Below the pieces are notes generated by a model, which was not told where the DNA came from, ran no database searches, and was given only the letters and a program-made list of their open reading frames with translations. From Nitrospirota bacterium (GTDB taxonomy: Bacteria > Nitrospirota > Nitrospiria > Nitrospirales > Nitrospiraceae), in contig JBDTSF010000178.1 in the NCBI GenBank assembly GCA_039931295.1, positions 352 through 64,351 on the forward strand: 64,000 bases of DNA. The letters run 5' to 3'. The position numbers and the translations under genes were made by a program. Shown here one piece after another: positions 5,901-64,000 of this stretch. Every line of letters begins with the position of its first letter. Position 1 is the first letter of the stretch.

Positions 5901-5921
5901 AAGAGGAAGGATCGTGATGCT

Positions 5922-7046
5922 GTGACCTCAGACCACTCCACCGCACCCCGCCCTTCTGGTGAAAGCACATTCCAGGGCAATCTGTTTACGCCGGCCTCGT
6001 CGGTCTTGGAATTGCGTCATGTCTCTTGCGCCTACGAAACCGGGCGCCCTGCGGTCCTGGAAATTTCCTTCGCAGCTAGAGAAGGGGAAATTCTTTGCCT
6101 GCTGGGTCCTTCGGGGTGCGGGAAGACGACCATTTTGCGGGCGATCGCAGGATTTGAACCGGTTCGTTCCGGCCAACTGTTCTTATCCGGGCAACTCGTC
6201 TCGTCACCGGACGTCATGATCCCGACGGAGAGCCGGCACGTCGGAATGGTCTTTCAAGAATACGCGCTGTTTCCCCACCTACGCGTCCAAGACAACATCG
6301 CCTTCGGGCTCCATCATCTTGCCCGGAGCGAACGCGCACCGCGAGTCCAGGAGATGTTACGCCTCACAGGGCTGGAGGGATTCGAACGACGATATCCTCA
6401 CGAATTATCGGGCGGCCAGCAACAGCGGGTCGCACTGGCTCGCGCCCTCGTCCAGAATCCCGTCGTCTTGCTGCTCGATGAGCCATTCAGTAATTTGGAC
6501 CCAGACATGGCCGGGCGCATGCGCCAAGAATTGCACGATCTCTTACGACGGACAAAGACAACCACTGTGCTCGTCACACACGATCATGACGAAGCGTTTG
6601 CCATGGCCGATCGAATCGCTGTACTCAACCAGGGCCGCTTGGAACAACTCGATACGCCGGAAATGATGTACCACATGCCGGCCACACCCTTCGTCGCCGA
6701 TTTCGTCGGTCAAGCAGACTTCATCCCTGGAACTGTCTCCCACGGCCTGGTCCAGACCGAACTAGGAGAGTTTCCCGATACCATCGAATGCGCGGATGGC
6801 ACCAATGTGGTCGTTATGATTCGGCCCGACGATATCCATCTTATCCCCACGAAGGGCGCGCGCGCGCGCGTCCTCTCCCGCCAATTTCATGGATCAGAAA
6901 ATCTGTATACGGTCAGCCTCCCCTCAGGTCAAATCGTTCATAGTAGCCAAGGTTCCACGAGCGTCTATCAGGCAGGCACGGCAGTAGAACTTCGTGTCCT
7001 GGCGACCCATACTGTGCTCTTTCGTCAAGAGAAGCCCACTGGATAG
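5922..7046 (+). CDS. Fe(3+) ABC transporter ATP-binding protein (FbpC/AfuC-type)
   Basis: Walker A GPSGCGKTT, signature LSGGQQQRVALARAL, Walker B LLLDEPFSNLD, and a C-terminal TOBE-like domain. GTG start preceded by GAGGAAGGA. Confidence 0.9.
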   Translation: MTSDHSTAPRPSGESTFQGNLFTPASSVLELRHVSCAYETGRPAVLEISFAAREGEILCLLGPSGCGKTTILRAIAGFEPVRSGQLFLSGQLVSSPDVMIPTESRHVGMVFQEYALFPHLRVQDNIAFGLHHLARSERAPRVQEMLRLTGLEGFERRYPHELSGGQQQRVALARALVQNPVVLLLDEPFSNLDPDMAGRMRQELHDLLRRTKTTTVLVTHDHDEAFAMADRIAVLNQGRLEQLDTPEMMYHMPATPFVADFVGQADFIPGTVSHGLVQTELGEFPDTIECADGTNVVVMIRPDDIHLIPTKGARARVLSRQFHGSENLYTVSLPSGQIVHSSQGSTSVYQAGTAVELRVLATHTVLFRQEKPTG

Positions 7047-55679: not shown

Positions 55680-56456
55680 CTAAATGCCTGCGTACCATTC
55701 GTAACCTTGATCGTCCTCCCAATACCCGCCCTTTCCGCCGGCAGTGCCAGAGAGGGTCTCCACCAATTCGACCATGATCACATACTTGGCCTGCTTGTAG
55801 CCGAGCTGCTGTTCGAAGCGGAGTCGAATCGGGGCGCCATGGGGGATGTCTAACGGGGTCCCATTCAACTCGTACGCCAAGATCGTTTGCGGATGATAGC
55901 AATCGGCCAGGGCCATGCTCTCGTAGTATGGCACCCCGTCCTCATCGACATCGGCACAATGAAAGACCGCATATCGGGCGGTCGGCAACGGTTGAACCTC
56001 GCGCATGAGATCGCCGAGTGGGACCCCGGTCCACTTGCCGATCGCACTCCAGCCTTCGACACAGTCATGCCGGGTGATTTGTGTCCGCGATGGCAATTCT
56101 TTCAGCGCCGCGAGCGACCAACTCATCGGGGTCTGAACCAATCCACCAACCTCCACCGTCCATTCTGAAAAATTCTTCGCCACATGTTCAGCATAGTCTT
56201 CTGTGCCCGGATCGGTATTGCCGTTTGATGGAAACACCTTCGAGATGTCGGCGTCCCCATATTCTTTGGCAAGAGCATTCGTGGGCGTGACCGCTCGTTG
56301 CACTCGTTCAGTCAGCTTCTCCGCCTTGCTTAAGATCGAAGGGAGCCAACTGCTCTGCGACAGATTATCGCAGCCGGCGAGGGCCACAAGACTTGCCGCG
56401 CCCAACGTCCCTTTCAAAAACTGTCTACGTTCCATCGCTCGTTCATGTGAATCCAT
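55680..56456 (-). CDS. Periplasmic molybdopterin-dependent oxidoreductase (SUOX fold; MsrP/YedY-like)
   Basis: Tat signal (ERRQFLKGTLGAASLVALAGC) and a Mo-binding core with TRHDCVEGWSAIGKWTGVPL. 258 aa, with no dimerisation domain. Confidence 0.8.
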   Translation of the reverse strand: MDSHERAMERRQFLKGTLGAASLVALAGCDNLSQSSWLPSILSKAEKLTERVQRAVTPTNALAKEYGDADISKVFPSNGNTDPGTEDYAEHVAKNFSEWTVEVGGLVQTPMSWSLAALKELPSRTQITRHDCVEGWSAIGKWTGVPLGDLMREVQPLPTARYAVFHCADVDEDGVPYYESMALADCYHPQTILAYELNGTPLDIPHGAPIRLRFEQQLGYKQAKYVIMVELVETLSGTAGGKGGYWEDDQGYEWYAGI

Positions 56457-56524: not shown

Positions 56525-56717
56525 GCAAGACGTTCAAAGAAGTCGTCCAGCAAGGCCGCAGGTGAATCGAAACCGGAGGCGTACCCCCGGGGGCGCACGG
56601 TGCGACGAATAAGGAGCACCAAGTCTGTGCGCGCCGCCGAGTGGTGAGGCGGCCGGGTCCCCGTTGAGGATCTGAACGATGCGAGAACGAAGCTGGCGGC
56701 TCCTTTCAACGTCCTGC
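56525..56717 (-). repeat. Intergenic imperfect-palindrome repeat, copy G (long form, 193 bp)
   Basis: GCAAGACGTTCAAAGAAGTCGTCCAGCAAGGCCGCAGG...CTCCTTTCAACGTCCTGC. Its terminal repeat supplies the last three codons and the TGA stop of the cytochrome b gene. Confidence 0.85.
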
Positions 56718-57671
56718 CTCATGCTTCACGACAAACCATCCGGTCACCATCGACCGGATGTTGTTGAAGAATCCGGTCAGGATCACTTCCAACACATGAA
56801 TCACAATAAACCCGACGAAGGTAAAACAGGCGATAAAGTGAATCGTCCGCGCCGCCTGCCGCCCACCGAAGATCGTGAGCAGCCAGGGGAACGCCGTATC
56901 GATCGTCGGCGACATCGTGAGGCCAGTCAAAACGATCACGGGCGCCACAATAAATAGAATGACTATATAGGCGAACTTCTGCAGCACGTTGTACCGCTTG
57001 GCCTCCTCCCCTTTGGGGTGCCGGAAGACAATGTGATCCTTGACGGTCTTGCCGATGCCACGCAGGTCCTTGCCTGTCGGAGCCAAGTCGCGCGTGACAT
57101 GTCGGCTCAACCACGCATAGGCCATAAAGAACAGGCCGTTGATGACAAGGAGCCACGCGAAAAACAGGTGCCACTGCCGGCCCATCGCCAGAACTTTAGC
57201 GCTCGGAATGGTCGCCCAAGCAGGGAAGGCCCGGCGCTTGCCGTCCGAATAGCCGAGCACTCCTGTCGTGTCGAACTTATAGCCAAGAATAGTGGTGATG
57301 CCGCGCATCTCGCCGCTTTCGGTCTTCATGGGGCGGATCGAGAGCAACGGCTGGTCTCGATCGGAACGATCACCCCAATAGAGGGCGGGATGCGCGTTGA
57401 AGATTTGGAGTCCACTCATAATCAGGATGATGAGAATCGGGACGTTGAGCCAATGGCTGATTCGTACCGGTAGTCGATGGCGGTAGACCCTCTCAAGCAT
57501 CGGAGTTGAAGCAGGTCGTGCGGCTGAGGCGGCATCCTGACTTGGAGCCAAACCAGCAAGAACTGAGGGCTCCTTGAGCGGATACGGTTCAGACCTCATC
57601 GCGAGTTCCGAGACCGGCTTGTTCTCCCTACCTTTCCTGACTCCAATTCCTTCATGAGTAAGTGAGGCCAT
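56706..57671 (-). CDS. Membrane di-haem cytochrome b (Ni/Fe-hydrogenase b-type / cytochrome b561-like family)
   Basis: 321 aa. HRLPVRISHWLNVPILIILIMSGLQIF and four or more TM helices with conserved His. About 70-aa soluble N-terminal extension. Confidence 0.75.
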   Translation of the reverse strand: MASLTHEGIGVRKGRENKPVSELAMRSEPYPLKEPSVLAGLAPSQDAASAARPASTPMLERVYRHRLPVRISHWLNVPILIILIMSGLQIFNAHPALYWGDRSDRDQPLLSIRPMKTESGEMRGITTILGYKFDTTGVLGYSDGKRRAFPAWATIPSAKVLAMGRQWHLFFAWLLVINGLFFMAYAWLSRHVTRDLAPTGKDLRGIGKTVKDHIVFRHPKGEEAKRYNVLQKFAYIVILFIVAPVIVLTGLTMSPTIDTAFPWLLTIFGGRQAARTIHFIACFTFVGFIVIHVLEVILTGFFNNIRSMVTGWFVVKHEAGR

Positions 57672-57760
57672 AATCCTGTCTCCTCTGGCTTGAAATTACC
57701 TGCCTGCTGTTTAGTCGACACCCAGTCTCGATTCTTACAACTGTTGGAGAGCAGACACAG

Positions 57761-57827: not shown

Positions 57828-58091
57828 CTACTTCCCCATGGCTCCCTTCATCTCACCTTTCATCTCGTCTTTCATTCCCTTCATGTCGCCCTTCATCTCA
57901 TCGTGTTTGGCTTTCATCTTGTCCTTCATCTCACCTTTCATATCGCCCTTCATCCCCTTCATGTCATCTTTCATGCCCTTCATGTCACCCTTCATCTCAT
58001 CCTTCATTTTCCCCATATCCTCGGCAAATGAAAGGGAACTGAACCCGACCAGACACATGACTGCGATGACTGACAGCATAATCTTCTTCAT
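57828..58091 (-). CDS. Secreted methionine/lysine-rich repeat peptide (MxKDx-type pentapeptide repeats)
   Basis: 87 aa from the ATG at 58091 (preceded by AAGGAGG). Signal peptide MKKIMLSVIAVMCLVGFSSLSFA. The 64-aa mature part is built from MKGDM/MKDEM units and has 16 Met. The upstream part of the ORF-track call (to 58274) is rejected. Confidence 0.7.
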   Translation of the reverse strand: MKKIMLSVIAVMCLVGFSSLSFAEDMGKMKDEMKGDMKGMKDDMKGMKGDMKGEMKDKMKAKHDEMKGDMKGMKDEMKGEMKGAMGK

Positions 58092-58170: not shown

Positions 58171-58632
58171 CTACTCATGTACCTTAGAGAGCTTCCTGAT
58201 CTCCGGCCAGTTTGCGTTTGCCTTACTGATATAGCCGGGGATATCCAACACCCATTGGGAACGGACTGTCTCACTATAGTTCAGGTAGAGCTTATCGCCG
58301 ACCACGGTAAATGCGTCTGGATCGATGACAGCCTTGTACCCCTTGGCCATGCCGAAAGCGCAATAGCCTCCGTACTGTGGGGCAAACTTGTCCGGGTTGG
58401 CTGTAAACGCGTCACGATTGGCTGCCGTAGAGAAGTAAAAGACCGAGCCTTGGTACTCTGCATGGAACTCCGGCAAGCCCGTCACCGGCTTCATCTCAAC
58501 GAAATAGGCGACTGGGTCGTAGCCGCTAATCGCCACACCGTCGCGTTCGAAGTACTCGCCAGCAAAGGCCGGTGTAGCAAAGACTACCGCCAGCAGAAGT
58601 GTCAGAAACCGATGGCTCACGAGTTTCTTCAT
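58171..58632 (-). CDS. Exported YHS-domain protein, paralog 1
   Basis: Signal peptide ...ATPAFA. ISGYDPVAYF, PQYGGYCAFGMAKG and GDKLYLN motifs are shared with the ORF at 60659-61120. ATG 58632 is preferred over the ORF-track start 58746. Confidence 0.75.
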   Translation of the reverse strand: MKKLVSHRFLTLLLAVVFATPAFAGEYFERDGVAISGYDPVAYFVEMKPVTGLPEFHAEYQGSVFYFSTAANRDAFTANPDKFAPQYGGYCAFGMAKGYKAVIDPDAFTVVGDKLYLNYSETVRSQWVLDIPGYISKANANWPEIRKLSKVHE

Positions 58633-58756
58633 TGCAACACCTGATAAAGGATGCATAACAATCAGTCGGACAAGAAGGTTGAATCTTACATAAAGAAGCA
58701 GGTCCTCGTTTCCCGGCAAGCAGCGGTCAGGCGCACCCACGCCCATCGTTTTCTTT

Positions 58757-58942: not shown

Positions 58943-59938
58943 TCACTTACCTGGCAGCCACCGGTCAAGGAAGTCGCGCATGAACATTGCAATTTCATCG
59001 CCCATATCCTCCAGCGCAAAGTGACCACTGTCGAGAAGGTACAACTTAGCGTTGGGAAGATCGTGCAGGTACGCATACGCGCCATCAGCTGGGAATATCT
59101 CATCATTCTGTCCCCACACGATGAGAGTCGGCGGCCGCCGTGTACGAAAGAACTGCTGGAATTGCGGGTACAGCGCAACGTTCGAACCATAGTCCTTGAA
59201 CAAGTCGAGCATGATCTCATCGATGCCAGGCCTGCCGAGCAGCGCTTGATCATGGAGCCAGGTGTCAGGGGAGATGCGTGACACATCACGGACACCCTTG
59301 ACGTACTGGGATTTCGTGGCTTCAGGAGTAAGCCCTACGCGTAGGGCCTCGCGATGCTGCTGCGAGCCGTCGGCCCAGTAGGCCTTAATCGGATTCCAGA
59401 AGTCCTTCAGCCCGTCCTCGTAGGCGTTGCCATTCTGTATCACCAGGGCAGTAACTCTCTCTGGATGCTTGAGCGCCAATCGGTAACCGACCGGCGCGCC
59501 GTAATCCTGCACGTACAAGCTATAGTTTTTCAGCCCAATTGTGTTCGTGAATTTGTCAATGACTCCCGCCAGGTTATCGAATGTATAATTGAACTCATTC
59601 ACCGATGGCGCTGAACTCTGCCCGAAGCCCGGATAATCCGGTGCAACCAGATGGAATCGATCCGCCAGCGCCGGGATCAGGTTGCGGAACATGTGTGACG
59701 ACGTGGGAAAGCCGTGCAGCAGTAAGATCGTTGGCTTCGACGGATCGCCCGCTTCGCGGTAGAAGATGTCGAGACCGTCAATATTGATCGTGTTGTAGGT
59801 TACTTGAGTTGTGCGTTGATCAGGACTGACGCGGTTGGCGGTGGGCTTCTGGGCTTGCCCATCAATGGGAAAGAACCAAAACGCTAATGAAAGCAGCACG
59901 ATCAACCACAATTGTGAAGATTTTTTGTGTATGTTCAT
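58943..59938 (-). CDS. Exported alpha/beta hydrolase (epoxide hydrolase / haloalkane dehalogenase-like, Asp nucleophile)
   Basis: Signal peptide. [16 protein letters not shown] oxyanion region and [10 protein letters not shown] nucleophile elbow. Confidence 0.8.
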
Positions 59939-59967: not shown

Positions 59968-60579
59968 CTACTGTTTTCGAAGCACCGGATATCCGAACGA
60001 GTATATCCACTTGTCGGCGTCAACAGCATTGCGCGGGGCGAGTTCCCTCGCAGGCATATGACAGGGGATACAATCTGTCTTGTAGTTTTTTGAGGCGGTG
60101 TGTGTGAGATCGTCGGCATTAAACAGCGACCACGCCCAGCCATCGCCCCACAGGCTGGATTCCTTGTACCGACCCTTGGTGTCCCTGATCAATACGAACC
60201 ATCCTTTGATTGTCGTCCCATGACCGACTGCAGGCCCTGTGGTCATCGCCATGGTTTCGGCATTGAGGAGTTCCTTGACCAGCACCGCGCCGTCCGGAAA
60301 CCGACGATGCGTACGATAGTAGGCAATGGTTTCCGGTTGGGTGTAGACGACATGGTACTCGTGCACACCGGGGCCCATCTTCTCGAGCTGCTCTCCCGTG
60401 TGTGCGTGCGCCCATGTGCCAAGCGTGGGCCATTCGGTGTAGCCCTCAGGAACCCTGATGGCGCCGGTGTTTACGTCGACATTGGGCGCAAAGGGTTTCT
60501 CCTCCCTGGCCATCACTCCTCCTGCCAGGCCCAACGCGGCCAGTATTAAAACAAATGCTGTGAGCGTTCCGTGTTTCAT
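59968..60579 (-). CDS. Cytochrome P460 / c'-beta family haem protein
   Basis: Signal peptide ...GGVMA and a single C-terminal CIPCH haem site preceded by WAWSLFNADD, the layout typical of the P460 fold. ATG 60579 is preferred over 60600. Confidence 0.7.
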   Translation of the reverse strand: MKHGTLTAFVLILAALGLAGGVMAREEKPFAPNVDVNTGAIRVPEGYTEWPTLGTWAHAHTGEQLEKMGPGVHEYHVVYTQPETIAYYRTHRRFPDGAVLVKELLNAETMAMTTGPAVGHGTTIKGWFVLIRDTKGRYKESSLWGDGWAWSLFNADDLTHTASKNYKTDCIPCHMPARELAPRNAVDADKWIYSFGYPVLRKQ

Positions 60580-60610
60580 CTGTGTTTCCTTGCCTCCCAT
60601 ATTGCGGTCA

Positions 60611-60644
60611 GGAAAATACGGCCCGCCGCTGCGGAGCGGCGGGC
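60611..60644 (-). terminator. Rho-independent terminator after YHS paralog 2
   Basis: Minus strand GCCCGCCGCT-CCGC-AGCGGCGGGC followed by CGTATTTTCC. Ends about 31 nt before the P460 ATG. Confidence 0.7.
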
Positions 60645-60658
60645 TTCCCCGTCATTCT

Positions 60659-61120
60659 TTATAGATCAGACGGCGCCTTCTCCTTGATCTCGATCCAATT
60701 TACATCGGCCTTCTTGATGTAGTTGGGGATGTCCTTACCCCATTTCTGCTGAATGCCCTTGTCCAGGTTCAGATAGAGCTTGCCCTGGACGATCTTCCAC
60801 ACCTCAGGGTCTGCAACGAACTTTTTACCCACTGCCACGCCGTAAGCACAGTAGCCGCCGTAGGCTGGAAGATATTTCTGTGGGTTAGCCTCGAACATCT
60901 TTCGGTGTTCGGCATTGGCGAAGACGTAAGTCACACCGTCAACGACGGTGACGTGATAGCCGCTCCCTCGCTCCGGCTTGCCCTCGGTGAAATACGCCAC
61001 CGGGTCATATCCGCTAATGCCTGGCGTGCTGTGACTGAACTCTTCTACAAAGGCGGATGCTGAGACAACGCTCGCGACCAAGACCATGATGGCCAGAAGG
61101 AATCTAGTTGCAATGTTCAT
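60659..61120 (-). CDS. Exported YHS-domain protein, paralog 2
   Basis: Signal peptide ...VVSASA. ISGYDPVAYF, PAYGGYCAYGVAVG and GKLYLN motifs. ATG 61120 is preceded by AAGGGAG. Confidence 0.75.
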   Translation of the reverse strand: MNIATRFLLAIMVLVASVVSASAFVEEFSHSTPGISGYDPVAYFTEGKPERGSGYHVTVVDGVTYVFANAEHRKMFEANPQKYLPAYGGYCAYGVAVGKKFVADPEVWKIVQGKLYLNLDKGIQQKWGKDIPNYIKKADVNWIEIKEKAPSDL

Positions 61121-61481
61121 GACATGCTCCCTTATCGATGTGATGGCACCTATCTGCATCCCCTGTCGCACGGCCTACCGGACCTCTGCACGCCTCCCTT
61201 CTTCACGGCACTCTGACGTTGATGGCCAAGGCAGTAACTTGCTGCTGTGAAGTCGGTTCTGGACCCCGAACCTTACAGTCCGTGGAGCCTCATCGTGACT
61301 CCTCAGATAGGGCTGTGAGACTTCTCGAACAGCCGAGCCGCGTGAAGGTGCGCCATCATCTACAATCGTGCAGAAAAGAAGAGACATCCCTAGGCATTGA
61401 CGAAGAAGCTGCGTTCTCGCCCGATGCAGGCAGTACTCCAAGTGAGGGGACACCCTTGGTGTCTCTCCCTCCGCGGCTTTC

Positions 61482-62210
61482 TTACGCGACCCTCTTCCGA
61501 CCCTCCAGCGTGCGCTCCACAGCGGCACGCACTCGCTCTCGAGCCCGGTGGAGCCGGACGTACAAATTGGTTTCGGTAATCTTCAACAGCTCGCAGACTT
61601 CCTTGACCTCAACACCTTCTACACCGCGGAGAATCAACACGTCTTTCAAGGTCGTCGGCAGGGCATCGACCGCATGCTGCATCGCCTGGACCGCCTGCCG
61701 GCTCGCCAGCAATTTCTCCGGGGTCTGATCGTCCCACGGTTGCGGCGGAAAGGCCCAATGCCCCGCCCATTCGCCGCTCTGATGGAAGCGGGACGGATCG
61801 ATTGCTTCGTCGTTGTCGTCATCGTAAGACTCAAAGGCCGAGAAGGTCGTATGCCGTTTCTCGCGCACACCGCGATCCTTGGCCTTATGGATGAGAATCC
61901 CGCAGACCCAGGTGCGAAGGGACGACCGGCCTTCGAACCGATTCAGGCTTTCGATCACTGCCATCCAGGTGTCCTGCACGACCTCTTCAGCCACTTCCCG
62001 ATCAGCCACATAGCCCATAGTCATTCGAACGAGCGTGCTGTGGTGCTGATTCACCAGTTCATCGAAGGCCCCTTCGTCACCGCGCCTCAGCCTCGAAAGG
62101 AGTGTGTCCTCGGCCCTCGTGGGACCGGGAGACTTGAGCGCCGTCGAGCACCCACTGATCGATGGGCTGTGACCAATGGACTCCATATAGGTGCTGGCGT
62201 CTGCGTTCAT
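61482..62210 (-). CDS. ECF-type RNA polymerase sigma factor with a long sigma2-sigma4 linker
   Basis: Region 2 (FDELVNQHHSTLVRMTMGYV...AEEVVQDTWMAV) and region 4 (VLILRGVEGVEVKEVCELLKITETNLYVRLHRARERV). About 60-aa acidic/Trp-rich linker. The start overlaps the STAS stop (ATGA). No anti-sigma ORF lies downstream. Confidence 0.85.
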   Translation of the reverse strand: MNADASTYMESIGHSPSISGCSTALKSPGPTRAEDTLLSRLRRGDEGAFDELVNQHHSTLVRMTMGYVADREVAEEVVQDTWMAVIESLNRFEGRSSLRTWVCGILIHKAKDRGVREKRHTTFSAFESYDDDNDEAIDPSRFHQSGEWAGHWAFPPQPWDDQTPEKLLASRQAVQAMQHAVDALPTTLKDVLILRGVEGVEVKEVCELLKITETNLYVRLHRARERVRAAVERTLEGRKRVA

Positions 62211-62479
62211 GACCGGCCTCCAATTCGTAGCAACTCCGTGACAAAGACTGGAGCGCTCATAAGGGTGACTTGTGATTGGGGGAAGTTATTCAGGACCTCC
62301 ACCCCTTTGGCATCGATGAAGTCGACATGGGAACAATCCAGATGCACAGCTTTCTCCTGTCGAAGATACGACCGACATTCACCATCCAGGAGAGCGGCCC
62401 ACTGATCCGTGATTTTTCCTTCGAGCTTGATAAGCACGTCGCGTCTGCTTTCTTGAACTTTTGTAATCTTGAGCATCAT
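62207..62479 (-). CDS. STAS-domain protein (anti-sigma-antagonist fold), apparently non-phosphorylatable
   Basis: About 90 aa from MMLKITKV (AAGGGAG before the ATG). LDCSHVDFIDAKGVEVL corresponds to the STAS DLS.V.FiDSsG segment, with Ala in place of the phospho-Ser. Confidence 0.6.
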   Translation of the reverse strand: MMLKITKVQESRRDVLIKLEGKITDQWAALLDGECRSYLRQEKAVHLDCSHVDFIDAKGVEVLNNFPQSQVTLMSAPVFVTELLRIGGRS

Positions 62480-62518
62480 CTCTATCGCTCCCTTGTGTTC
62501 ATCTGATGACCGGGTATT

Positions 62519-62536
62519 CAGCAACAGCGATGCCAG
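62519..62536 (-). promoter_or_regulatory. Sigma-54 (-24/-12) promoter upstream of the STAS-ECF pair
   Basis: Minus strand CTGGCAT-CGCTG-TTGCTG, i.e. TGGCAT-N5-TTGCT against the consensus TGGCAC-N5-TTGC(A/T). About 40 nt upstream of the STAS ATG and directly downstream of a sigma-54 activator gene. Confidence 0.6.
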
Positions 62537-62644
62537 ACTAATTGCGTGGCAGACAGAACAGCGTAAGTATTTGATGTGGAAAGATGAGGTGAGGAGTTTT
62601 CAAGATGGAGACGCAGGGAGCCAACAGGAATAAATTCCTAACAT

Positions 62645-62670
62645 ATTGGGAGCGTCCCAATTAGTTGGGA
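62645..62670. promoter_or_regulatory. Candidate enhancer (UAS) for the sigma-54 activator
   Basis: Palindrome ATTGGGA-GCG-TCCCAAT (62645-62661) plus a third TTGGGA half-site (62665-62670), about 110-135 bp upstream of the -24 element. Confidence 0.3.
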
Positions 62671-62761
62671 ACTTTCGATAGGAAAAGAGCGAATGGCGTA
62701 TGGCTGATAGCAGGGAGGAAGTAGAGAAGTGGGAATGCGCGGTGAGAACGCTCAGTGCATG

Positions 62762-64000
62762 TTACCTCTCACGTTTCACCCGCGTAATCCCGAGCTTCTT
62801 CATACGGGCTTCGAGTGTCGTGGCATTGAGGCCGAGGATTTTGGCTGCGCCTTTCTCGCCGCTGACGCGCCAGTTGGTCTGTTCCAGCACATCGACGATA
62901 TGCTGGCGTTCCATCTCTTCCAAGGTTGGCGTCTTGCCCACGCCGGCCTTGCCGGGGGATTGCGAGAGCCAGTCGATTGGTTCCAGTTCAGGCCCCTCGC
63001 TCAAGATTATGGCACGTTCGATCACATGTTCCAGCTCGCGGATGTTCCCCGGCCATGGATAGCGCTGAAGCGCCGTCATCATCTGTTCCGGAATCCGATC
63101 GATCTTCTTCCCGAGGTTTGCCGCAAATTTACGCACGAAGTATTGCACCAGCAAGGGGATATCGTCCGCTCGCTCGCGCAACGCCGGGAGGTGGATCGGG
63201 AATACGTTCAGACGGTAATACAAATCAGGGCGATAGTGACCGGTCTTCGATTGTTGTTCGAGGTCCCGGTTTGTGGCAGCAATCACCCGCACGTTGACTT
63301 TGAACGTCTGCGTCCCGCCCACCCGCTCGAACTCCCCTTCTTGCAACACGCGCAGCAACTTGGATTGCAGATCGAGCGGCAGCTCCCCGATTTCGTCAAG
63401 AAAGATAGTTCCCTTGTCGGCCAGCTCAAAGCGGCCCATCTTTTTCGCAAGCGCACCGGTGAAGGCACCCTTTTCGTGACCGAACAGTTCGCTTTCGATC
63501 AAGCCGGCTGGAATGGCTGCGCAGTTGACTTTGACGAGGGGGCGATCCTTCCGCTGGCTCAGATTATGGATGGCGCGCGCAATCAGCTCCTTCCCTGTGC
63601 CGGTCTCGCCGGTAAGGAGCACGGTCGAGTCAGTCGGGGCTACCCGTTCGACGTTCTTGAGCACCTTTTTCAACGAGGTCGAACCACCGATCAACTCTTC
63701 GAAGTTGTGGGTGCCCTTGATTTCCTCTTGCAAATAGACGTTCTGGGCCTCAAGCCGAGCCTTCTCCTGCTCCATCAACACTTGCTCGGTAATGTCGAGG
63801 AACATCGTGCGCGTGTAGGTGCCGCCGGGATCGGGCCGCGACCACCACTTCATCCAGAGCGGTTTGCCGTTATCTTTGCGCCGCAGTTCCAGTACCACGC
63901 CGCTGGTGTCGATGCCCTTACCAACCGAGGCAAACGCCTCTTTCAGGCGCCGTTGTGCGTCGGGTGTATTGGGAACGAAATCCCTGCCGTAGAGGCCGTT
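62762..64000 (-). CDS. Sigma-54-dependent Fis-family transcriptional activator with PAS sensor (5' end outside the window)
   Basis: AAA+ core (GETGTGKE, GAFTGA, ELFGHEKGAFTGA), C-terminal HTH (AAKILGLNATTLEARMKKLGI) and a PAS-like segment upstream. The reading frame stays open from 63898 to the window edge. Confidence 0.9.
   Translation of the reverse strand, partial: NGLYGRDFVPNTPDAQRRLKEAFASVGKGIDTSGVVLELRRKDNGKPLWMKWWSRPDPGGTYTRTMFLDITEQVLMEQEKARLEAQNVYLQEEIKGTHNFEELIGGSTSLKKVLKNVERVAPTDSTVLLTGETGTGKELIARAIHNLSQRKDRPLVKVNCAAIPAGLIESELFGHEKGAFTGALAKKMGRFELADKGTIFLDEIGELPLDLQSKLLRVLQEGEFERVGGTQTFKVNVRVIAATNRDLEQQSKTGHYRPDLYYRLNVFPIHLPALRERADDIPLLVQYFVRKFAANLGKKIDRIPEQMMTALQRYPWPGNIRELEHVIERAIILSEGPELEPIDWLSQSPGKAGVGKTPTLEEMERQHIVDVLEQTNWRVSGEKGAAKILGLNATTLEARMKKLGITRVKRER

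Follow-up and report, generated by a model that had tools for sequence, protein, structure and literature searches.

Cascades in which sigma-54 controls a sigma factor of the extracytoplasmic function (ECF) type, as for HrpL, anti-sigma factors with a zinc-binding anti-sigma (ZAS) motif, and partner switching by STAS proteins are each textbook matter. Here we analyse a 64-kb stretch of DNA from a Nitrospirota bacterium (contig JBDTSF010000178.1; the whole stretch is called the window below), on the minus strand of which the gene for a sigma-54 enhancer-binding protein (EBP) is followed by a spacer and by two overlapping genes, one for a small STAS protein (mini-STAS) and one for an ECF sigma factor. 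We propose that these genes form a two-tier sigma cascade, conserved in Nitrospira and beyond, and give the whole four-step explanation a probability of about 55%. The locus is a new combination of known parts (sigma-54/EBP, STAS, ECF and ZAS) in a widespread, undescribed module. The literature gave no description of a sigma-54/ECF cascade combined with ZAS and STAS, nor of a kinase-independent STAS protein beside an ECF sigma factor or a sigma-54 activator, and full-text searches on STAS together with ECF, ZAS or sigma-54 returned no description of the EBP-miniSTAS(-ECF) module.

In architecture, the locus can be likened to the HrpR/HrpS–sigma-54–HrpL (ECF32) cascade of Pseudomonas syringae (PMC5263251; ECF32, PMC7826278). 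In both cases the ECF gene lies behind a sigma-54 promoter, real or predicted, with an EBP gene adjacent, no anti-sigma factor is encoded in cis, and sigma activity is, or would be, set by synthesis. The Hrp system also has small feedback proteins that bind the EBP, HrpV and HrpG, whose proposed analogue here is the mini-STAS. The likeness is one of architecture, and there are differences: a single EBP with PAS/GAF sensor domains stands in place of the sensor-less HrpR/HrpS pair, a coupled STAS gene precedes the sigma gene, orthologous loci carry a ZAS gene, and the putative regulon is oxidative-stress-like rather than one of type III secretion. SigR-RsrA (ECF12) represents the soluble zinc-binding type of anti-sigma factor, and most Nitrospira orthologues of the operon share with it a small soluble C-x26-H-x3-C-x2-C protein and a redox-flavoured regulon. 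Unlike SigR-RsrA, the window is missing the anti-sigma gene, the operon is apparently sigma-54-driven and not autoregulated, an extra STAS gene is present, and the sigma factor is nearest to the PRK12520 and TIGR02943 models (below their cut-offs) and not to a SigR model.

ECF16 sigma factors (SigF/BcrS, paired with NrsF/AbcS) control a Met-rich peptide and MsrQP in Brucella, Azospira and Caulobacter; in Brucella the promoter consensus is (T/C)GTAAC-N17-CGAA and the regulon, an MxKDx-type peptide and MsrQP, serves in hypochlorite protection (PMC8315932). The window resembles this system in promoter and cargo. Its candidate ECF promoters read TGTAAG-N16-CGAC, and a secreted MxKDx Met-rich peptide, a b-type cytochrome and an MsrP-like molybdoenzyme are encoded close by. 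In contrast, the anti-sigma factor of ECF16 is a six-helix DUF1109 membrane protein and its operons are autoregulated, whereas the Nitrospira operons have ZAS or no anti-sigma factor and lie under predicted sigma-54/EBP control.

The mini-STAS shares its fold (TM ~0.8) and the conserved DxxG loop with SpoIIAA and RsbV. It differs from them in having 89 aa without the C-terminal helix or a phosphorylatable serine, in having no SpoIIAB/RsbW kinase or PP2C phosphatase encoded nearby, and in being linked to sigma-54 EBPs and ECFs instead of group-3 sigma factors. The nearest published analogy to the mini-STAS module is SypA of Vibrio fischeri, a single-domain STAS protein whose unphosphorylated form is active on an unknown target and which, like the mini-STAS, is encoded by the first gene of a locus under a sigma-54-dependent activator, SypG (PMC4517449). 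Unlike the mini-STAS, SypA has Ser56 and a kinase/phosphatase (SypE), and its locus has a response-regulator EBP and no ECF sigma factor. In the negative feedback of PspA on PspF, a sigma-54 operon begins with the gene for a protein whose target is the AAA+ domain of the operon's own EBP. The model that we favour for the mini-STAS is, by analogy, of this kind, a first-gene product that would bind its own EBP, although PspA is a coiled-coil ESCRT-III-like protein with no STAS domain.

Layout of the operon and its conservation in Nitrospira

The elements of the locus are as follows.

62762..64000, minus strand: 3' part of the EBP gene (412 codons of 937 aa), truncated by the window end, stop at 62762
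62477-62761, minus strand: EBP-stas spacer of 285 nt with upstream activating sequence (UAS), IHF-like box and -24/-12 element
62635..62670, minus strand: candidate UAS, half-sites TCCCAA / TTGGGA / TCCCAA / TTAGGA alternating, nearly invariant in 20 Nitrospira spacers
62564..62576, minus strand: IHF-like box CATCAAATACTTA, WATCAA-N4-TTR with one mismatch, between UAS and promoter
62520..62535, minus strand: predicted sigma-54 promoter TGGCATCGCTGTTGCT = TGGCAT-CGCTG-TTGCT, -24/-12 element
62207..62476, minus strand: mini-STAS gene, 89 aa, Pfam STAS, second ATG as start
61482..62210, minus strand: ECF sigma gene, 242 aa, Pfam Sigma70_r2 and r4_2
61121..61481, minus strand: non-coding spacer of 361 nt in the place of the ZAS gene, from sigma stop to the start codon at 61120

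An earlier reading made from the sequence alone (the sequence-only reading) had given the minus-strand order EBP, spacer, STAS, ECF, and all of these elements were found where it had put them. Our statements on the locus itself cover the 64-kb window; for comparison, 22 related loci were retrieved from Nitrospira genomes, and further close relatives were added later. The EBP-STAS-ECF order is preserved in about 20 Nitrospira genomes, wherever contig extent permits, so that the STAS-ECF synteny for which the sequence-only reading had proposed a check is conserved. The overlap of the STAS stop and sigma start, ATGA, also proved as first read and is kept in 22 of 23 Nitrospira loci; predicted translational coupling of the ECF sigma factor to STAS is supported. 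A Nitrospirota metagenome-assembled genome encodes a protein with 100% identity to the ECF sigma factor, and the window's arrangement without ZAS was present in four independent assemblies. A contig identical to the window, from independent assemblies (L001), supplied the complete EBP.

The sigma-54 activator and the predicted stas promoter

The part of the EBP inside the window (412 aa) matches Pfam Sigma54_activat (249 bits), AAA_lid_14 and HTH_8, and the full protein, read on L001, has 937 aa with the order PAS-GAF-GAF-PAS-AAA+-HTH_8. The Pfam matches and the full-length protein confirm the PAS-containing activator named by the sequence-only reading, and the spacer behind it, given there as 280 bp, measures 285 nt. 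TGGCATCGCTGTTGCT is the sole match to TGGCAY-N5-TTGCW in 64 kb, where 0.12 are expected. Its GG and GC lie 10 nt apart, as in the TGGCAC-N5-TTGCW consensus, and both dinucleotides are invariant, at a fixed distance to the start codon, in 20 of 20 orthologous spacers. The -24/-12 element noticed earlier is thus unique in the window and conserved in all orthologous loci examined (20/20). A search of 60500-62800 for sigma-70-like promoters gave no match.

About 120 bp upstream of the -24 element, region 62670-62635 reads directly as TCCCAAC-TAA-TTGGGA-CGC-TCCCAAT-ATGT-TAGGAA, with half-sites that form overlapping palindromes. The palindrome described earlier, as read on the plus strand, is present, but the count of three half-sites was too low: there are four, the fourth reading TT(A/G)GGA across the spacer alignment. 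We infer that this UAS is bound by the EBP. The TCAA and TTA columns of the IHF-like box are conserved in the same alignment (ATCAA-N4-TTA), and IHF would bind there, judging from the textbook consensus. The UAS, the IHF-like box and the GG/GC dinucleotides are kept in 20 of 20 aligned Nitrospira spacers while flanking sequence has diverged, and because of this conservation amid diverged surroundings they are more than chance matches. As read from the alignment, the footprint of the spacer matches the expectation for a sigma-54 promoter plus enhancer. In orthologous Nitrospira loci the EBP gene always adjoins the stas promoter; with promoter and UAS conserved in every one of them, the step from sigma-54 to an ECF sigma factor suggested by the sequence-only reading is supported. 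One locus (L020, at 2792) has a TGTAAG-N16-CGAC site upstream of the EBP gene, which no other locus shows; through such a site the ECF sigma factor would feed back positively on its own activator.

The ECF sigma factor and its candidate regulon

The sigma factor matches Pfam Sigma70_r2 (48 bits), r4_2 (42 bits) and Sigma70_ECF (25.9 bits) with no region 3, and TIGR02937 at 76 bits against a cut-off of 42.9; having sigma2 and sigma4 only, it falls in group 4. Its nearest NCBIfam models stay below their cut-offs (TIGR02943, 116.5 against 162.2 bits; PRK12520, 120.8 against 255 bits), and by these scores it is not a member of either, though none is nearer. A PDB search gave AlgU and RpoE as nearest structures, a generic similarity. 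The protein divides into a variable N-terminus of 30 aa, sigma2 (~30-117), a linker (~118-163) and sigma4 (~164-241). The linker is acidic and Trp-rich, as had been noted, almost invariant among orthologues and of low confidence in the AlphaFold2 model. The unusual length once ascribed to it was not borne out: PRK12520 and TIGR02943 both align straight over it with almost no insertion (query 50-232 to model 5-180), and its length is therefore ordinary for ECFs like these. The N-terminal extension described earlier (residues 1-30) does exist but is poorly conserved and modelled with low confidence; variable sequence and low confidence led us to reject it as a fused regulator. A paralogous ECF sigma factor, 73-75% identical, is encoded at ~5914-6650 of two other loci (L019 and L022; Nitrospira CG24A and RSF6). 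It shares the invariant linker and has a different N-terminus, no STAS, EBP or ZAS gene or TGTAAG site lies nearby, and lactonase-like and thioredoxin-like genes follow.

When bipartite motifs were enumerated in post-operon spacers, TGTAAG-N16-CGAC emerged. It matches the window exactly three times, where 0.07 matches are expected; none of 100 shuffles reached three, and two of the three sites lie outside the discovery set. All are on the operon strand, at most 3.6 kb downstream of the sigma gene and each in front of genes, and the 35 exact sites in related loci are likewise all on the operon strand. The candidate promoters and the genes that accompany them are listed here.

61252..61277, minus strand: candidate ECF promoter 1, before the YHS gene 60659..61120
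60659..61120, minus strand: YHS-domain (seleno)protein family gene, 153 aa (NF041384, 145 bits against a cut-off of 70)
60621-60644, minus strand: predicted intrinsic terminator after the first YHS gene
58665..58690, minus strand: candidate ECF promoter 2, before the YHS gene 58171-58632
58171-58632, minus strand: second YHS-family gene (NF041384, 152 bits)
57828-58091, minus strand: secreted Met/Lys-rich MxKDx-type repeat peptide, 87 aa, repeat read directly
57714..57739, minus strand: candidate ECF promoter 3, before the cytochrome b gene 56706-57671
56706-57671, minus strand: cytochrome b (Pfam Ni_hydr_CYTB on orthologues)
55680-56456, minus strand: molybdopterin oxidoreductase (Oxidored_molyb on orthologues; best NCBIfam model MsrP, 97.6 bits, below the cut-off of 207)

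A Met-rich peptide, a Ni_hydr_CYTB-type cytochrome and an MsrP-like gene (97.6 against 207 bits) thus stand near TGTAAG-N16-CGAC sites. Because promoter and cargo resemble the ECF16 system, whose regulons guard the periplasm against methionine oxidation and hypochlorite, a periplasmic function of the regulon in oxidative or chlorine stress is suggested by analogy, and such a function would fit the redox-sensitive ZAS of the ancestral operon described below. Autoregulation of the ECF sigma factor was considered and rejected, since no TGTAAG-type site lies upstream of stas in any locus.

The two YHS genes are paralogous, each behind a TGTAAG-N16-CGAC site, and similar genes lie downstream of the operon in many Nitrospira loci. 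The 87-aa peptide, encoded between the second YHS gene and the cytochrome b/MsrP-like pair, has Met/Lys/Asp-rich MKGDMKG/MKDEMKG repeats and no NCBIfam match; in this it is like MrpX/BcrX, the MxKDx peptides of ECF16 regulons that scavenge hypochlorite sacrificially. Genes added in relatives encode a Zn-dehydrogenase, a DUF417 protein, cytochrome bd, a carbonic anhydrase and a thioredoxin-like protein.

A ZAS gene in relatives and its absence from the window

When the open reading frames (ORFs) of related loci were clustered, a small gene came to light that directly follows the sigma gene in 19 orthologous Nitrospira loci. Its product of ~88 aa is soluble, with no transmembrane segment, carries C-x26-H-x3-C-x2-C ("HLASCAHC") and matches Pfam zf-HC2 at 41 bits, the zinc-binding anti-sigma motif. 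The 19 intact genes come from 17 genome loci and from two closer relatives with 87-89% identical sigma factors, and wherever the gene was found it is strictly cis-linked. It is absent from one further locus (L023) and from the paralogous sigma loci L019 and L022. Two assemblies (L010, L025) have it frameshifted; these were rejected as independent losses and left out of the count. As the EBP or sigma gene is broken in them too, errors of long-read assembly are the probable cause.

In the window, 361 nt separate the sigma stop from the next real start, a stretch that the sequence-only reading had rightly called non-coding and had put at 310 bp. No zf-HC2 or transmembrane ORF occurs in these 361 nt, the ZAS profile, run over all frames of the spacer and over the rest of the 64 kb, has no match, and the spacer has no nucleotide similarity to ZAS-bearing loci. 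Candidate ZAS remnants, sought on both spacer strands and in the rest of the window, were rejected, the best E-values (0.16-0.29) being at chance level. An ENA contig with a 90%-identical sigma factor (L030) likewise lacks ZAS and has a homologous spacer, ~85% identical to that of the window and separated from it by indels of 1, 3, 1 and 5 nt, which argues that the spacer is non-coding. A 117-aa ORF at 61175-61528 containing "HLEYCLHR" was rejected as a degenerate anti-sigma gene (no Pfam or ZAS-profile match, frame broken in L030). The 361 nt also gave no Rfam match at E<=1, and a riboswitch or other structured RNA was rejected as well. Right after the sigma stop, a GC-rich hairpin (61444-61469, minus strand; -19.2 kcal/mol, z -2.1, no U-tract) is conserved in L030 and could be a stabiliser or a weak terminator.

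By this comparison, ZAS is ancestral to the operon and was deleted in the lineage of the window and L030. The earlier claim that no anti-sigma gene follows the sigma gene therefore holds in cis for these two loci and fails for the family, in which 19 loci encode ZAS; a cognate anti-sigma factor encoded nearby, which the sequence-only reading had held would speak against it, exists in those relatives and not in the window.

The mini-STAS protein and its family

The STAS protein scores 28.0 bits against Pfam STAS (cut-off 22.6), so that the protein of roughly 90 aa read earlier passes the threshold; alignment of homologues and spacers places its start at the second ATG (62476), giving 89 aa. It scores 19.4 bits against NCBIfam TIGR00377 (anti-sigma factor antagonist), below the cut-off of 53.45. 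The AlphaFold2 model (pLDDT 85.8) has the topology beta-beta-alpha-beta-alpha-beta-alpha, a minimal STAS fold from which the final helix is absent. Its best Foldseek matches were SpoIIAA and RsbV, with TM 0.79-0.81 (1thn_B, 6m36), and the STAS domains of MlaB and YchM were among its structural neighbours; sequence-level similarity to PDB entries was insignificant. The phospho-site position, residue 56, reads D-A-K-G in the window, and the Ala seen there earlier in place of the DSSG serine is real. Nitrospira orthologues have A, G, S, Q, D or K at this position, Ser not being conserved, whereas W26, C34, C48, D55 and G58 are invariant. As the sequence-only reading had it, there is no RsbW-type kinase in the locus; no RsbW/SpoIIAB-type GHKL kinase or PP2C phosphatase was found in ~30 Nitrospira and 80 metagenomic loci either. 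That the mini-STAS has no phosphorylation cycle is well supported by these comparisons.

Among 1.8 billion cluster representatives, a profile built from the STAS proteins of Nitrospira matched 222 clusters at E<=1e-10, nearly all of 85-92 aa, with the pattern MLRIT...LKLEGRI...W...LE.EC...LD...V.F.D..G. Across 123 members W26, C34, D55 and G58 are retained in 84-92%, and position 56 is R/A/G/E, with Ser in five. Eighty metagenomic loci were retrieved using a 10-sequence subset of the family. A PAS/GAF sigma-54 activator adjoins the mini-STAS in 62 of the 64 informative loci, all partner EBPs examined being PAS/GAF one-component types, and an ECF sigma factor does so in 31 of 50, a looser tie than that to the EBP; in 19 loci the order EBP>STAS is followed only by enzymes or other genes. 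At least 23 of these loci have a perfect TGGCAY-N5-TTGCW 30-65 nt upstream of the first gene. The arrangements seen were EBP>STAS>ECF, ECF>STAS<EBP, EBP>STAS>two ECFs, EBP>STAS>enzymes only and EBP>STAS>soluble histidine kinase>ECF>response regulator. In distant lineages, and whichever gene comes first, STAS and ECF genes overlap as ATGA or GTGA or stand 4-36 nt apart; outside Nitrospira, no ZAS gene follows a STAS-linked sigma gene. By its gene content, the window is one member of a recurrent EBP-miniSTAS(-ECF) module across many metagenomes.

Mini-STAS paralogues exist in Nitrospira genomes, and a plasmid search for the family gave no match. The tandem ECF genes straight after the mini-STAS gene in two loci (L039 2231-3531 and L038 4261-5543) both encode sigma2 and sigma4. 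In the histidine-kinase branch (L074, L077, L082, L094, L107 and others), a HisKA-HATPase kinase without sensor domain is encoded together with an ECF and an OmpR-type response regulator, the kinase stop overlapping the sigma start; here STAS might regulate the kinase.

The proposed cascade and its alternatives

In the proposed cascade, the cytoplasmic PAS-GAF-GAF-PAS EBP would bind the tandem-palindrome UAS and activate the sigma-54 promoter of stas-ecf, probably with IHF-type bending. This is the only recognisable promoter of stas-ecf, and ECF synthesis would therefore depend on the signal sensed by the EBP, as for HrpL; this step is well supported by the conserved spacer. The ECF sigma factor would then direct RNA polymerase to the TGTAAG-N16-CGAC promoters of neighbouring genes, with YHS-domain proteins, the secreted Met-rich peptide, and cytochrome b with the MsrP-like molybdoenzyme as targets, a step supported by motif statistics and synteny. 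The ancestral third gene, for a soluble zinc-thiolate ZAS of the RsrA kind, would add a redox gate. Comparison of loci leaves its lineage-specific loss well supported, and after the deletion sigma activity in the window lineage would therefore be set mainly by sigma-54/EBP-dependent expression. Finally, the 89-aa STAS protein would be a binding module that needs no kinase, is produced in stoichiometry with the sigma factor and feeds back on the AAA+ EBP as PspA does on PspF or HrpV on HrpS; the conserved Cys34 may serve as a thiol sensor. This action on the activator is the least certain step, to which we give somewhat less than an even chance. It is favoured because the mini-STAS has a near-universal EBP partner, is the first gene whatever the cargo and is kept without ZAS or ECF, and it also fits the part that STAS domains are known to play in regulating ATPases.

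Several points weigh against the cascade as drawn. The evidence for every step is computational. The TGTAAG motif is tied to the stas-linked sigma factor by co-location only, promoter 1 is disrupted in L030, which also lacks ZAS (5-nt deletion, -35 box TGTACG), and no exact ECF-type promoter precedes the genes for cytochrome P460 and a hydrolase further downstream, so that their membership in the regulon is uncertain. A ZAS or other anti-sigma factor could be encoded beyond the 64-kb window. Adjacency to the EBP gene may merely mark stas as a target gene of the EBP, with no contact between the proteins, while the tight STAS-ECF coupling in both orders and in distant lineages, and the ECF>STAS<EBP loci, in which STAS occupies the usual position of an anti-sigma gene, favour a role directed at the sigma factor. 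The selection data have a narrow base as well: between the two genomes without ZAS (the window and L030) dN/dS is 0.14 for STAS (dS 0.31), on only 25 substitutions, and 0.17 for the sigma factor. These ratios equal those of comparisons between ZAS-bearing loci, and by them STAS and sigma factor are under purifying selection without a cis-encoded ZAS.

A STAS protein acting on the sigma factor, as the sequence-only reading thought possible, would be either a phosphorylation-free ZAS antagonist, in the manner of the redox-controlled RsfA of M. tuberculosis, or, where there is no anti-sigma factor, a non-canonical anti-sigma factor or chaperone for the ECF. Beyond the stas-ecf coupling in 22 of 23 Nitrospira loci and its recurrence in distant lineages and in the reverse ECF>STAS order with no other anti-sigma gene in cis, this reading draws on the order STAS-sigma-ZAS, which puts the antagonist first as in rsbV-rsbW-sigB, and on the conservation of two residues, D55 and G58, in the loop through which STAS proteins canonically interact. 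The sigma linker is almost invariant though predicted to be disordered alone, which suggests a binding partner. However, no ECF lies near the STAS gene in 19 of the 50 informative loci of the family, the neighbouring ECFs are of visibly different sequence types, and literature searches gave no precedent for a ZAS domain or an ECF sigma factor as the partner that STAS binds. Purifying selection on STAS persists after ZAS loss, and a purely ZAS-directed role is therefore unlikely. We regard a sigma-directed STAS as a serious rival, though unlikely on balance, and a classical anti-anti-sigma role as less likely too. The locus might instead be an ordinary one whose anti-sigma factor (ZAS or other), perhaps with an RsbW/RsbU pair, is encoded elsewhere and acts in trans. 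Our view takes in 64 kb of the genome, and the paralogous ECF sigma factors (L019, L022) and mini-STAS paralogues of Nitrospira make such partners conceivable. Against them stand the lack of a ZAS homologue in the window, the strict cis-linkage of ZAS where present, and the surroundings of ~100 loci, which hold no GHKL anti-sigma kinase and, in one arrangement, only a HisKA kinase; nor is the phospho-site conserved across the family, for which reason an RsbW-type kinase cycle is unlikely. Partners in trans are accordingly very improbable. Least credible of all is a mini-STAS with no transcriptional role, a ligand- or protein-binding accessory to the cargo, for instance an adaptor, redox or nucleotide-binding, that serves enzymes of periplasmic stress, its place as first gene of these sigma-54 operons being accidental. 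Known ligands of STAS domains include nucleotides, acyl carrier protein and ABC ATPases, MlaB and YchM are structural neighbours, and in some operons STAS is followed only by enzymes (lactonase, GSDH/CHRD, Rieske and DinB, radical SAM). Against this, the cargo differs wholly between loci while EBP and sigma-54 promoter are constant, and a cargo-specific role therefore fails to explain the conservation.

Returning to the cascade with STAS acting on its activator, a broader claim can be framed, which we consider doubtful: that mini-STAS proteins are an undescribed class of kinase-independent regulators physically linking PAS/GAF EBPs to their output, by gating the AAA+ activator or by binding the ECF in the anti-sigma factor's stead. 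Within this claim, mini-STAS might be controlled by a thiol switch at Cys34, and EBP-miniSTAS(-ECF) would, if it is true, be a new widespread three-part signalling module.

In metagenomes from soil, freshwater and engineered systems, the sequence clusters of the module number in the hundreds, and it offers a testable new STAS partner, the AAA+ activator or the ECF sigma factor. Lineages with and without ZAS form a natural experiment that separates transcriptional from post-translational control of an ECF. Nitrospira have a key part in water treatment as nitrite oxidisers and as comammox organisms; the locus gives a first handle on how they control an apparent periplasmic defence against methionine oxidation or reactive chlorine, of relevance to chlorinated and chloraminated systems.

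Other features of the locus

Two further genes sit within the putative regulon cluster, past the terminator at 60621-60644.

59968-60513, minus strand: cytochrome P460 (Pfam Cytochrome_P460, 74.6 bits)
58943-59938, minus strand: alpha/beta-hydrolase (Pfam Abhydrolase_1, 123 bits)

Cytochrome P460 is normally tied to hydroxylamine/NO chemistry. In one related locus (L016) the P460/hydrolase cassette lies 3.7 kb farther from the sigma gene and is therefore rearranged. Antisense to the sigma and STAS genes, a 285-aa ORF at 61548-62405 (plus strand) recurs in relatives (cluster c9); it is most likely no gene and a codon-bias by-product of GC-rich coding DNA.

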